From Escherichia coli (GTDB lineage: Bacteria; Pseudomonadota; Gammaproteobacteria; Enterobacterales; Enterobacteriaceae), in assembly GCF_045037415.1 (NCBI RefSeq), contig NZ_CP173438.1: DNA of 64,000 nucleotides; one strand, given 5' to 3'. A program made the position numbers. This document shows, one piece after another, positions 24,001-31,466 of the stretch (within the stretch, counting starts at the first letter, position 1; every line of letters begins with the position of its first letter).

Positions 24001-27000
24001 ATCGCGCTGGGGATGCTGAACTTTTTCCTGCTCTGCGCCCTGTCGGTGTTTGTGTTTGGCGTACCGCATAAAGGCAGTTTCCTGACGCTCACCCTGGCGG
24101 CGCTGCTGTATATCATCATCGCCACCGGAATGGGGCTGCTGATCTCCACCTTTATGAAAAGCCAGATTGCCGCCATTTTCGGTACGGCAATTATCACGTT
24201 GATCCCGGCGACACAGTTTTCCGGGATGATCGATCCGGTAGCTTCGCTGGAAGGTCCAGGACGTTGGATCGGCGAGGTTTACCCGACCAGTCATTTTCTG
24301 ACTATCGCCCGCGGAACGTTCTCGAAAGCGCTGGATCTGACTGATTTGTGGCAACTTTTTATCCCGTTGCTGATAGCCATACCGCTGGTGATGGGCTTAA
24401 GCATCCTGCTGCTGAAAAAACAGGAGGGATGATGCGCCATTTACGTAATATTTTTAATCTGGGTATCAAAGAGTTGCGCAGTCTGCTCGGTGATAAAGCG
24501 ATGCTGACGCTGATTGTCTTCTCGTTTACGGTGTCGGTGTATTCGTCAGCGACCGTTACGCCAGGATCGTTGAACCTCGCGCCGATCGCCATTGCCGATA
24601 TGGATCAATCGCAGTTATCGAACCGGATCGTTAACAGCTTCTATCGCCCGTGGTTTTTGCCACCGGAGATGATCACCGCCGATGAGATGGATGCCGGGCT
24701 GGACGCCGGACGTTATACCTTCGCGATAAATATTCCGCCTAATTTTCAGCGTGATGTCCTCGCCGGACGCCAGCCGGATATTCAGGTGAACGTTGATGCC
24801 ACGCGCATGAGCCAGGCATTTACCGGCAATGGGTATATCCAGAATATTATCAACGGTGAAGTGAACAGCTTTGTCGCGCGCTACCGTGATAACAGCGAAC
24901 CGTTGGTATCGCTGGAAACACGGATGCGCTTTAACCCGAACCTTGATCCCGCGTGGTTTGGCGGGGTGATGGCGATCATCAACAACATTACCATGCTGGC
25001 GATTGTATTGACCGGATCGGCGCTGATCCGCGAGCGTGAACACGGCACGGTGGAACACTTACTGGTGATGCCGATAACGCCGTTTGAGATCATGATGGCA
25101 AAGGTCTGGTCGATGGGGCTGGTGGTGCTGGTGGTGTCGGGATTATCGCTGGTGCTGATGGTGAAAGGCGTGCTGGGCGTACCGATAGAAGGCTCGATCC
25201 CGCTGTTTATGCTGGGCGTGGCGCTCAGTCTGTTTGCCACCACGTCAATCGGCATTTTTATGGGGACGATAGCGCGTTCAATGCCGCAACTGGGGCTGCT
25301 GGTGATTCTGGTGCTGCTGCCGCTGCAAATGCTTTCCGGTGGTTCCACGCCGCGCGAAAGTATGCCGCAGATGGTGCAGGACATTATGCTGACCATGCCG
25401 ACGACACACTTTGTCAGCCTCGCGCAGGCCATCCTCTATCGTGGTGCCGGATTCGAAATCGTCTGGCCGCAGTTCCTGACGCTGATAGCGATTGGCGGCG
25501 CGTTTTTTACCATTGCGCTGCTGCGATTCAGGAAGACGATTGGGACAATGGCGTAAATACAGTGCCCGATACGCAAGCTTATCGGGCCTACGCGATGGTG
25601 CAATTTATTGAATTCTAGTGGTTTTGTAGGCCGGATAAGGCGTCACGCCGCATCCGGCGAGGATTTATTTTACCGACCGATGCCCCTCATTCATCATCAG
25701 GATTTTGCTATACACATCTTCCTCGACGGCGTTTTTTGCTGATGCCATCACTCGTGCCAGATTCGCCTCGTTGTGATTATTCACATACGCTTTGCCGACT
25801 GCGGTGATAAACGCTTTGCGCAGATCGCTGGCGATATTCACTTTAGCGACGCGATAATTAACGAAACTGCGTAATATCTCCGGGGCGATACCGGAGCCGC
25901 CGTGGATAACCAGCGGCACCGGGCTGACTTCGGCAATGCGCTTCAGCAGGGGGATATCGATCCGCGGTATATCGTCCAGGCCATGAACGTTACCAATAGA
26001 AACTGCCAGCATGTCGCAACCGGTGCGTTCGACAAAGGTCTTCACCTTTTCCGGTTCCGTTTTGCAATCGGCCTCGCTGACGTGATCATCTTCTTTGCCG
26101 AGAATCGCCCCCAGCTCCGCTTCAACCGGCACGCCATAAGATTTACAGAAATCGACAGCTTCCTGGGTGAAAGCGATATTCTCTTCAAAAGAGAATGCGG
26201 CACCGTCAATCATGACCGAGGTAAAGCCCGCGCGCACCGCCTGTTTAACATCCTCCTGGGTTTTCCCGTGATCCAGATGAAGACTGACCGGAACATCCAT
26301 TTTATCGGCGTGACGTTTCACGATTTCATATATGTAATCGTATCCCGACAGTTGTGCATTGGTGGGCGCAATCTGAATGAAGTTGGGTAATCCCGAACGC
26401 TCAATAGCGTTTAAAATTGAAATTGTCGTCTCCAGATTGGTGGTATTAAACGCGCCCGCTAATACCCGTTTTTCCTGAATGCGGTCGAGCAGTATCCGTC
26501 CATTCACTAATGGCATATTGAAAACCTCATTTTTTAATATCAGTTAATTATTCAGCTTCACCGAAGCGGTCGCGAAATAAGGCGGTGAGAGTCTGTATGG
26601 CCTCGTTTTCATCATCACCGTCGCAGCGTATTTCCACCGTTTTTCCGCCTTTTATTCCGGCGCGCATAATATTCATCATACTGGTGGCATTAATATCATT
26701 ACCCTCATAGTGCAGCGTCACTTTACAGCTACATTTTTTGGCGGCTTTCGCCAGACAGGCCGCCGGACGTGCATGCAGGCCAGTACTGTTTCTGACCTCC
26801 ACGGTTTTAGTCAACATAGTGCTCCTCCCGATGATGTAATGGCATCACGCCTTCTTGCTGTAATTTCAACTGATACCAGCTTTTCCATTTGTGCTGATAA
26901 CGCTGTAATTGATGATATCTTGCCCGATTCGGTAACAAACGTTGGGCTATGGTAACTTGCGGCGGCGGAATATCCGGTGCCGCGGTTAATAAGGCTCCGA

Positions 27001-30000: not shown

Positions 30001-31466
30001 GACAAATAAAATGGTTTGACTCATATTTCACCTCGTTCTTTCATTTTGTTTAAGATTGCTGTGTGTATTTCTGTTGTTTCCATCGTAAGCAGGGCGCACA
30101 TAAAGGGCGTATCCTGAATCATCTCCATAATCCACCCCAGGGCATTTAATTGTTTGTTACTTTCGCCTAAGGCGAGCAAAAAAATCACCCTGACAGGTAC
30201 GGGATCAGGGTCGCCGCCCATATCGGCAAACACTACCGGTTCCGGCAGGATGCCGACGGCAATTGCATTGTGCCTGACATGTTTATGGTCCGTGTGCGGA
30301 ATGGCGACACACGGTGGTTCGGTAGGCAGTCCCGTTGGGTACGTCGCCTCACGTTCCAGTACATGATCGGCAAAATCAGGGACCACCAGTTCGGCGGTAA
30401 CCAACGGTTGCGCTAACTGACGGATGATCTGTTCAACGCTTAACCCTGCCGGAAGTCGTTGAATAAAATTTTCCTGAAACTGTATGCCTTGCATTTTATT
30501 CCTCTTAAAAAAGTGTACTTAACTCACTTCCCGCCGTTGCAGCACGGTGCCAAGATAGTATTTATTTCCTTTTAACCAGACGTTGCCAAACTCAACGGGT
30601 AATCCGCGGGAGAAAAAGACTAACTGCTCCAGATGCAAAACGGGTGCATCTTCACTGATATCTAAAAAATGACCGCGTTCATTACCAATTAATCGCGCGG
30701 CATAGCGACTTTCCGAGTAACGAATTTTTCTTTGCGACAAACTTTCTATTGTTGGAAATAAATTGTGTTGATTAAAATCGATTTCCACGATGCCGGGGCA
30801 TAGCTCAATATTGATACGGTTCTCTATCAGCATCGCTTTTTCATCACCAATTGAACGTAAACGCTCAAGGTAAAGAATATCCTGACCGGGCGTTATTCTT
30901 AATTTCTCTGCCACATAACGATTAGCCGGTTCAATCCGTGACGTAATAACTTCAGTGGTAAAATGTATTTTCTGGCTTTCCAGCGATTCCGCGAATGACA
31001 ATAATCCTTCACCTAACGGATATGCCACGTTCTCTTTTTTGACAAATGTTCCCTTCCCCTGAACCTGAATCAACACGCCTTCTTTTACCAGTTGGGCGAC
31101 CGCTTTTTTAACGGTTCCCCGACTCACTTCCAGCATATCCATAATCTGGTATTCCGAAGGAATGCGATCGTCTTCCACCAGATCCCCGGTATAAATACTT
31201 TCTCTTATCCACTCCACCACTTGTTGATAGAGCGGTATTTGTGACGACTTACTCAATGATTTCATGGCGCGCACCTGAACATTTACAGTTGTCTATGGAC
31301 AATCATGGACAACTTCAAGCGTATAGTAGGTGAACAGGCGAAAAAGAGGATCGAAGCGTCTCACATTTTAGGGGACCAAATCGTGATCAAAAAAATGTGA
31401 CGTGAGTCGATATTTGGCAGGAGTCTACTGCGCCGTCAGGAAATAACGGCGCGTTGGGAGGTGTTA

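Follow-up and report, generated by a model that had tools for sequence, protein, structure and literature searches.

A galactitol-family phosphotransferase operon between nikR and yhhJ, the probable ancestral occupant of a variable chromosomal slot in Escherichia

Analysis of a 64,000-nucleotide stretch of an Escherichia coli genome (contig NZ_CP173438.1, assembly GCF_045037415.1; hereafter the window, to which all positions refer unless stated) found a seven-gene operon in the slot between nikR and yhhJ. It encodes a phosphotransferase system (PTS) of the galactitol (Gat) family together with a regulator, an FGGY-family kinase, an HPr-like protein and a class II aldolase, and is predicted to serve the catabolism of a carbohydrate. 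Although the laboratory strain K-12 carries an Rhs element at this site, the evidence assembled here points to the operon as the older of the two.

Genes and control signals of the slot

The slot contains seven co-oriented genes on the minus strand (25665-31265) and nothing else of substance, both in our list of open reading frames and in the RefSeq annotation of strain 5-1, which is 99.99% identical over the whole window. In transcription order, these encode a GntR/HutC regulator, EIIA, EIIB, a Gat-family EIIC, an FGGY kinase, an HPr-like protein and a class II aldolase. The features of the locus, by position, are as follows.

25556, plus strand: stop codon of yhhJ, the left flank of the operon
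25564-25658, no strand assigned: bacterial interspersed mosaic element (BIME) of two inverted repetitive extragenic palindromic (REP) units, REP1 (25564-25591) and REP2 (25626-25658)
25665-26516, minus strand: predicted class II (zinc) ketose-bisphosphate aldolase, 283 amino acids (aa), NF005943 and TIGR00167
26548-26817, minus strand: HPr-family phosphocarrier, 89 aa, with His15 in GLHARPA
26807-28315, minus strand: FGGY-family carbohydrate kinase of a distinct subfamily, 502 aa, PF00370 and PF02782
28308-29666, minus strand: PTS EIIC of the galactitol (Gat) family, 452 aa, PF03611 on orthologues
29743-30024, minus strand: PTS EIIB, 93 aa, with an N-terminal Cys in FVCATG, PF02302 on orthologues
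30021-30494, minus strand: PTS EIIA (PTS_EIIA_2), 157 aa, with a His in VAIPHT, PF00359 on orthologues
30519-31265, minus strand: GntR/HutC-type regulator, 248 aa, winged helix plus UTRA domain, PF00392 and PF07702 on orthologues
31289-31312, minus strand: candidate operator of the HutC-type regulator, GTTGTCCATGATTGTCCATAGACAAC, with TTGTMCAT half-sites, from sequence conservation
31323-31365, minus strand: candidate promoter, with a half-conserved CRP-like site TGTGAGACGCTTCGAT (31365-31350) and a -10-like TACTAT (31328-31323), from reading of the sequence
31430-31452, minus strand: hairpin GCGCCGT-N9-ACGGCGC directly after the nikR stop, a possible nikR terminator
31464-31865, minus strand: nikR (stop at 31464), the right flank of the operon

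The genes are tightly packed, with overlaps of 4 bp between EIIA and EIIB (30021-30024), 8 bp between EIIC and kinase (28308-28315) and 11 bp between kinase and HPr (26807-26817), and all seven reading frames are intact in the window. The GC content of the operon is about 0.50, close to the genome average, and the end that carries the regulator, EIIA and EIIB genes is AT-richer (42-47% GC). The BIME separates the stop codons of yhhJ and the aldolase gene, which converge on it; its palindromes are GCCCGATACGC/GCTTATCGGGC and GCCGGATAAGGCGT/ACGCCGCATCCGGC, and a sub-threshold Rfam match to naRNA4/REP-derived RNA is the only RNA gene signal in the slot. A scan of positions 15000-42000 found no tRNA, the RefSeq annotation lists no integrase or transposase in the slot, and no direct repeat flanks the operon. 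PADLOC gave no match on the locus, so a reading as a defence system is unsupported. A preliminary description of this DNA, made from the sequence alone, had already reported the seven co-oriented genes with operon-like packing, the 4-bp and 11-bp overlaps, REP elements at the left boundary and the lack of integrase, transposase and tRNA, and all of these observations hold.

Families were assigned with NCBIfam models and their cut-offs, supplemented by precomputed Pfam matches on orthologues. Every operon protein falls within a family and none within a substrate-specific equivalog: cut-offs were passed only by generic models, namely TIGR00167, the HPr family and an unnamed class II aldolase model. 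For the PTS, EIIC scored 474 bits against TIGR00827 (cut-off 542) with a match spanning 406 of 407 positions, EIIB 60 bits against the GatB model (cut-off 95) and EIIA 55 bits against the GatA model (cut-off 139). The catalytic residues of the phosphotransfer proteins (the Cys of EIIB, the His of EIIA and His15 of the HPr-like protein) are all present in the sequences. These matches place the transporter in the galactitol family (Gat, TC 4.A.5) on sequence grounds and indicate that it is not a true GatABC orthologue, all three Gat cut-offs being missed. The EIIC start given by PGAP is at 29666; the longest open reading frame extends to 29696.

The aldolase scored 556 bits against NF005943 (cut-off 364) and 220.6 against TIGR00167 (cut-off 215.6), which assigns it to the class II ketose-bisphosphate aldolase family and predicts activity on a bisphosphate. 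It falls below the equivalog cut-offs for GatY (239 vs 383), KbaY (181 vs 542) and FBA (237 vs 343), and annotation shows no GatZ/KbaZ-type partner gene within the operon. Its best solved relative is the tagatose-1,6-bisphosphate aldolase AgaY (1GVF, E = 5.5e-48), to whose D82, H83, H180 and H208, which we take to be the catalytic Asp and the zinc ligands, its D82, H83, H178 and H205 align. YdjI, an aldolase acting on a ketose 1-phosphate, is also a clear solved class II relative (E = 8.8e-43).

The kinase belongs to the FGGY family by motif (DIGTTNCK, AGHDHM, NSTGTTEG) and by the invariants of its subfamily (D11/G13/T15, H239-D240, T259-G260-T261), which include its ATP and catalytic motifs, and lies far below the named FGGY equivalogs: XylB is the best at 145 bits (cut-off 380), GlpK (129), FucK (121), RhaB, GntK, LsrK and AraB all score below XylB, and all miss their cut-offs. 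Its best solved relatives are glycerol kinases (E ~5e-24). Where glycerol kinases have the Arg of the RE motif, this subfamily has Gly (GESG). At residues 407-409, I-G-P-A is invariant throughout the subfamily and replaces GGG; other FGGY kinases carry a glycine-rich GGG(A/S) adenosine motif at this site. The HPr-like protein is a member of the HPr family (100.9 bits against TIGR01003, cut-off 47.9) below the cut-offs of the ptsH HPr, NPr and FPr equivalogs, and with 48 bits against the 153 required for PtsH, it is not the housekeeping PtsH. The best NCBIfam matches of the regulator are the HutC-type models PhnF, TreR and HutC, which assign it to the HutC subfamily.

The regulator gene starts at the ATG at 31265, in a conserved start context (CAGGTGCGCGCCATGAAA); an upstream GTG (31274) falls inside the AGGTG ribosome-binding site. 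Above this start, GTTGTCCATGATTGTCCATAGACAAC is a good candidate for a HutC-type operator. The element (31312-31289) contains a 14-bp near-palindrome (31289-31302) and the sole exact TTGTCYATRGACAA in the 64-kb window. Every Enterobacterales locus compared has it ahead of the regulator gene, and TTGTACA repeats stand at the equivalent position in the Firmicute loci of Enterococcus and Listeria. Further upstream, a AAAATGTGA-N6-TCGAT element is centred 41.5 bp before the transcription start implied by TACTAT, a geometry that would fit a class II CRP-dependent promoter, and AAAATGTGA together with a TAnnAT element is conserved among Enterobacterales loci. The hairpin behind nikR might perhaps separate the nik operon from the sugar operon; it has no T-run, and a consensus scan did not call it.

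Age and history of the slot

The identical nikR-yhhJ slot holds the operon in E. albertii, E. whittamii, Escherichia sp. MOD1-EC7003 (a cryptic clade) and Citrobacter amalonaticus, and likewise in a contig labelled E. fergusonii. Nucleotide divergence of the operon follows that of its surroundings, with identities of 95-98.5% (flanks 95-97%) to O157:H7, 90-96% (flanks 92-96%) to E. albertii and 72-83% (flanks 79-86%) to C. amalonaticus. Synonymous divergence (dS) is also similar in operon and flanks against O157 and E. albertii. The ratio of nonsynonymous (dN) to synonymous divergence against E. albertii is 0.013-0.22 over all seven genes, and values of about 0.02-0.2 against both E. albertii and C. 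amalonaticus indicate purifying selection.

The contig labelled E. fergusonii (L009:3682-5401) has peculiarities of its own: nikABCDE is missing, acpT abuts nikR, and nikR is separated from the operon regulator gene by an inserted HEAT-repeat gene. Its nikR is only 86% identical and its operon 95-98%.

Among 5426 complete E. coli genomes, the slot occurs in four states. The operon, counted where at least 80% of the 5.9-kb query was covered in one place, is present in 1635 genomes (~30%), including O157:H7 and CFT073, always on the chromosome and in single copy; there was no true plasmid carriage, the only plasmid matches being two mislabelled chromosomes. The Rhs state of K-12 accounts for ~39%, with the nikR-rhsB junction in 2097 genomes and the yhhI(ISEc1)-yhhJ junction in 2112, and recurrence of the same two junctions indicates that this state has a single origin. 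A further 1491 genomes (~27%) carry hicAB only, as in E2348/69, where the hicAB genes are identical to the O157 copy, the next 112 bp are unrelated sequence and the slot has no operon remnant. In the remaining short or near-empty state (~160 genomes, ~3%), nikR and yhhJ lie less than 900 bp apart; in STEC299, 8 bp separate their stop codons. O157:H7 combines the operon (ECs4349-4355) with hicAB. In CFT073, RefSeq annotates the kinase gene as frameshifted (L059:20794-22301; 1508 bp vs 1509) and the other six genes are intact; the frameshift could be a real inactivation or an error of an old assembly.

Directly after yhhJ, hicAB is found in many strains (O157:H7, L002:5304-5935; E2348/69, L012:1973-2604). 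In O157:H7, it replaces the BIME and the last aldolase codons, and the aldolase there has 286 aa. Strain PK8261 was considered as an intermediate carrying both Rhs and the operon and was rejected, as it merely has a shorter REP spacer.

The preliminary description named rhsB as the K-12 occupant and proposed an alignment of the junctions to K-12. The K-12 occupant was given correctly, since the MG1655 slot reads rhsB-yhhH-yrhC'-yhhI from nikR to yhhJ, and the alignment placed the breakpoints at 25643/25644 and at the nikR stop. On the yhhJ side, K-12 keeps REP1 and exactly half of REP2, with homology ending at 25643; beyond this point, its sequence is that found 78 bp past the ISEc1-type transposase gene yhhI. 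The two sequences match again from the stop codon of nikR. The comparison thus indicates that in K-12, window positions 25644-31465 (5.8 kb) are replaced by 6.6 kb of Rhs/IS DNA, with the truncated palindrome as a scar. Because a truncated REP abuts an IS end, K-12 is the genome that carries the rearranged state.

Because of outgroup synteny, flank-like divergence and the REP scar in K-12, we consider it probable that the operon, which lies on the chromosome and would serve carbohydrate catabolism, has been inherited vertically and is the ancestral occupant of the nikR-yhhJ slot in Escherichia, and that the Rhs, hicAB and short states are derived. In this history, an rhsB element with ISEc1/H-repeat would have replaced the operon in K-12-like strains, and deletion in other lineages would have left hicAB or nothing. 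If the operon is ancestral, the missing mobility genes are expected.

The preliminary description had instead taken the operon for an accessory island acquired by an unclear route; on this reading, it would have inserted horizontally into a hotspot that was originally Rhs or empty. The description's account of the gene content, packing, REP boundary and strain variability stands; the idea of an acquired island is not supported. The slot is indeed polymorphic, the regulator/EIIA/EIIB end is the AT-richer one, other genera hold the module elsewhere with 58-76% identity to enterococcal versions (EIIA 45% and kinase 37% excepted), and the Salmonella homologue has been inferred as a gain by subspecies I (PMC3604774). 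However, every Escherichia species examined has the operon in this slot, as does C. amalonaticus; its divergence and dS match those of the flanks, its GC is ordinary, and it comes with neither an integrase, a tRNA nor flanking direct repeats and has no copy on a plasmid, so that the features of a genomic island are lacking; and at the K-12 junction, it is the REP that is truncated against an IS end. Within Escherichia, acquisition as an island is already contradicted by these observations, and we regard it as very unlikely. We give just as little credit to the view that the operon is a cryptic remnant, no longer used in E. coli and in the course of being lost. Disappearance from ~70% of the complete genomes along three or more routes, the frameshifted kinase of CFT073 and truncated kinase variants in the protein collection (P0048, P0085 and P0123) would fit such decay, but the seven frames of the window are intact, the dN/dS values are those of constrained genes, the regulatory region is conserved between genera, and as many as 1635 genomes retain the operon.

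Vertical, ancestral occupancy also has observations that weigh against it. Relative to C. amalonaticus, where synonymous sites are near saturation, dS of the operon is somewhat above that of most flanking genes, and homologous recombination between flanking sequences may at some early time have exchanged the operon. Moreover, outside Escherichia and C. amalonaticus, the module is not found beside nikR or yhhJ; because of these other locations and of an EIIC that is 76% identical between E. coli and Enterococcus, the module is taken to have moved horizontally over long time scales.

Distribution of the module and its proposed pathway

A wider survey by pattern scan, with one genome per species, gave 44 confirmed loci. 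EIIA, EIIB, EIIC, kinase and aldolase occur together in 37 of the 44 (tblastn with the E. coli proteins), and the regulator accompanies them in all but two of these 37. About 20 genera of enterobacteria carry the six-gene module (without HPr), among them Salmonella, Klebsiella oxytoca, Enterobacter, Cedecea, Rahnella, Pantoea and Trabulsiella, and beyond the enterobacteria it is found in the Enterococcus avium group, Listeria immobilis, Pediococcus, Tetragenococcus, Sporolactobacillus and Pectinatus. The order of the genes differs between loci, and an HPr-like gene occurs only in Enterobacterales, with none in the Firmicute modules. The 8-bp EIIC/kinase overlap is preserved in Enterococcus, whose proteins share 76% (EIIC), ~69% (aldolase), 68% (EIIB), 58% (regulator), ~45% (EIIA) and 37% (kinase) identity with those of E. 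coli. No other conserved enzyme (dehydrogenase, isomerase or hydrolase) accompanies the module across the loci compared.

Two Erwinia loci (L048 and L050) are arranged differently, with a divergent EIIA-EIIB-EIIC-kinase set (EIIC 58% and kinase 37-38% identity) and, ~1.2 kb downstream, a regulator-aldolase-HPr set nearer to E. coli (68-82% for regulator and aldolase). This looks like a composite or duplicated module.

The proteins evolve at two rates. Against C. amalonaticus, dN is ~0.14 for kinase, EIIA and HPr and ~0.03 for EIIB, EIIC, aldolase and regulator, a four- to fivefold difference. Because the ratio of fast to slow proteins is similar against C. amalonaticus and against Enterococcus, we attribute the pattern to a higher evolutionary rate in the soluble phosphotransfer proteins and not to gene displacement. 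The speed of kinase, HPr and EIIA could reflect co-evolution of interacting phosphotransfer partners.

Given these components, we propose that the HutC/GntR repressor would control the Gat-family PTS, and that expression is probably CRP-dependent and would be relieved once the repressor binds a phosphorylated intermediate. The PTS, aided by the dedicated HPr-like phosphocarrier, would import and phosphorylate a ketose; the FGGY kinase would add a second phosphate at the other terminal hydroxyl; and the zinc-dependent class II aldolase would split the resulting ketose bisphosphate into dihydroxyacetone phosphate (DHAP) and an aldose phosphate, the latter entering glycolysis. Since no dehydrogenase or isomerase ever accompanies the module, the substrate is most probably a ketose, either a hexulose or a heptulose. 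The module is self-contained, and the PTS product would therefore reach central metabolism by kinase and aldolase only. The HPr-like protein is most simply taken as a dedicated phosphocarrier for the operon EIIA; its translational coupling to the kinase and the fast evolution that they share may leave room for a regulatory contact between the two. A bisphosphate route is favoured by the aldolase, which passes the TIGR00167 cut-off and has AgaY as its nearest solved relative.

The same operon, with the same history, would also accommodate another chemistry, in which the aldolase cleaves a ketose 1-phosphate to DHAP and a free aldehyde such as glyceraldehyde, which the kinase then phosphorylates. 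Such a pathway would parallel, in bacteria, the aldolase B/triokinase route, and the HPr-like protein might in addition regulate the kinase. In its favour, the kinase's nearest solved relatives are glycerol kinases and YdjI is clearly related to the aldolase; to our knowledge, FGGY kinases act on unphosphorylated sugars, and a PTS product would be an unusual substrate for them. HPr is also translationally coupled to the kinase and shares a raised rate with kinase and EIIA, and contacts between HPr and FGGY kinases are known for LsrK and enterococcal GlpK. The aldolase, however, has its highest scores with bisphosphate aldolases and lies above the ketose-bisphosphate cut-off, the Arg of the glycerol-kinase RE motif is Gly in the operon kinase, and Firmicute modules lack the HPr-like gene. 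We hold the aldehyde route to be unlikely.

The model with the bisphosphate scheme is itself opposed by several points. Beyond the preference of FGGY kinases for unphosphorylated sugars, kinase, EIIA and HPr evolve fast and the CFT073 kinase is frameshifted, and on these grounds the kinase step may be dispensable or differ from our proposal. A strict consensus scan did not call the candidate promoter. Literature searches on yhhJ/nikR, STM3780-3785, ECs4349-4355 and FGGY/galactitol PTS/aldolase returned no functional study and no experiment or paper tying the locus to a substrate. Z4879-4884, presumed to be the EDL933 tags, gave only noise, the match to an egg-white transcriptome proved unrelated, and the locus goes unmentioned in the BEN2908 comparative paper. 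As late as 2024, 'unknown sugars' was the heading under which the Salmonella homologue appeared (PMC11000858). As to D-tagatose, CFT073 is in our belief a close relative of Nissle, and its kinase is the frameshifted one. The phenotype of the Nissle kinase knockout (PMC9720028) does not settle whether D-tagatose is the substrate.

It is possible, and to our minds somewhat doubtful, that the operon represents an undescribed sugar pathway, with an FGGY kinase acting on a PTS-delivered ketose phosphate or on an aldehyde released by the aldolase, an enterobacterial kinase wired to a dedicated, co-evolving HPr, and a gut-relevant rare ketose as the source of a niche advantage. Such a ketose is suggested by retention of the module in chuA-positive E. 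coli, O157:H7, Salmonella subspecies I and the E. avium group.

The operon itself is annotated in thousands of genomes and lies in a known variable slot; what our analysis corrects is the direction of change. Absence from K-12 together with metabolic cargo does not amount to an acquired island, and here the laboratory strain represents the derived state. A Gat-family PTS, an FGGY kinase and a class II aldolase, joined in some lineages by an HPr-like protein, form a compact and widely conserved catabolic module, whose carriers also include group-I enterococci. Knowing the substrate would close a minor gap in our picture of sugar metabolism in enterobacteria and might account for a niche trait, with no change to any larger picture. 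The remaining interest lies in an FGGY kinase found inside a PTS operon together with a dedicated HPr.

Neighbouring variation and relation to known systems

The window is collinear with CFT073 and 98.7% identical to it. The haem uptake genes chuA and chuS (~1050-4109) adjoin dctR and place the strain in a chuA-positive phylogroup. Between yhiM and yhiY, an intergenic stretch of 33% GC (19899-20456) stands where K-12 and O157 have the DUF4049 genes yhiJ and yhiL; these are absent from the window and from CFT073. A toxin-antitoxin pair of the acetyltransferase type, ataR-ataT, which we take to be absent from K-12, lies between panM and livJ (52039-52839, coordinates transferred from the collinear strain 5-1). 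A second variable slot lies 10 kb away from the operon: O157 Sakai (L007:2682-17698) and PK8261 (L058:23840-29818) carry a large acyl-carrier/ketosynthase cluster before acpT, which lies between yhhT and acpT in Sakai and runs beyond the end of the PK8261 locus, and which is absent from the window, K-12 and CFT073.

The nikR-yhhJ slot has been catalogued as rhs locus 9, among 11 rhs positions in E. coli (Jackson et al. 2009, PMC2935791). That work treats the Rhs occupant, whereas the present analysis concerns the PTS operon, which is probably older.

None of the well-characterised operons with a defined substrate matches the one described here. The preliminary description had suggested a survey of lineages and a search for a named PTS locus of extraintestinal pathogenic E. 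coli; the survey shows that the operon is also present in O157:H7, and the search gave no such match. The frz locus was rejected on gene content: it has a fructose-family PTS, a ROK kinase, an MgA-type activator, a cupin protein and two aldolases. The PTS-dependent D-tagatose pathway and the tagatose cluster of Nissle employ a fructose-family PTS or an ATP-binding cassette (ABC) transporter and non-FGGY kinases. The tagKTH genes with gatYZ in Klebsiella and Salmonella and the ABC-type tagatose cluster of Nissle share the logic of the proposed route, in that a ketose is phosphorylated twice and then cleaved by a class II aldolase (PMC9720028). The Nissle cluster was nonetheless rejected, as it lies at accC-yhdT and has an ABC transporter (PMC9720028), and so was vpe, a neighbour of deoK in a different region of difference (PMC5382810). 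Both vpe and frz are likewise strain-variable PTS-type carbohydrate loci of pathogenic E. coli, and in neither does an FGGY kinase accompany an HPr-like protein at nikR-yhhJ.

The gat operon (gatYZABCDR) shares with the present one a Gat-family EIIABC and a class II aldolase of the tagatose-bisphosphate type, with cleavage of a ketose bisphosphate as the end of the pathway. It differs in having the dehydrogenase GatD, GatZ and the DeoR-type regulator GatR, in place of which the nikR-yhhJ operon has an FGGY kinase and an HPr-like protein, and the operon proteins are all below the cut-offs of the galactitol-specific IIA, IIB, IIC and GatY models.

The closest known counterpart is a Salmonella island for 'unknown carbohydrate utilization', described as gained by subspecies I and repressed by H-NS (PMC3604774). 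We assign it to STM3779-STM3785 from its position beside the uhp genes and from that description. It contains the same seven families contiguously, which makes it an orthologous module, with identities to the operon of 89% (EIIC), 89% (aldolase), 84% (EIIB), 83% (regulator), 63% (kinase), 61% (EIIA) and 47% (HPr). The two modules differ in site, that of Salmonella being downstream of the uhp genes, and in gene order (kinase-aldolase-HPr vs kinase-HPr-aldolase in E. coli), and they carry the same upstream operator motif.

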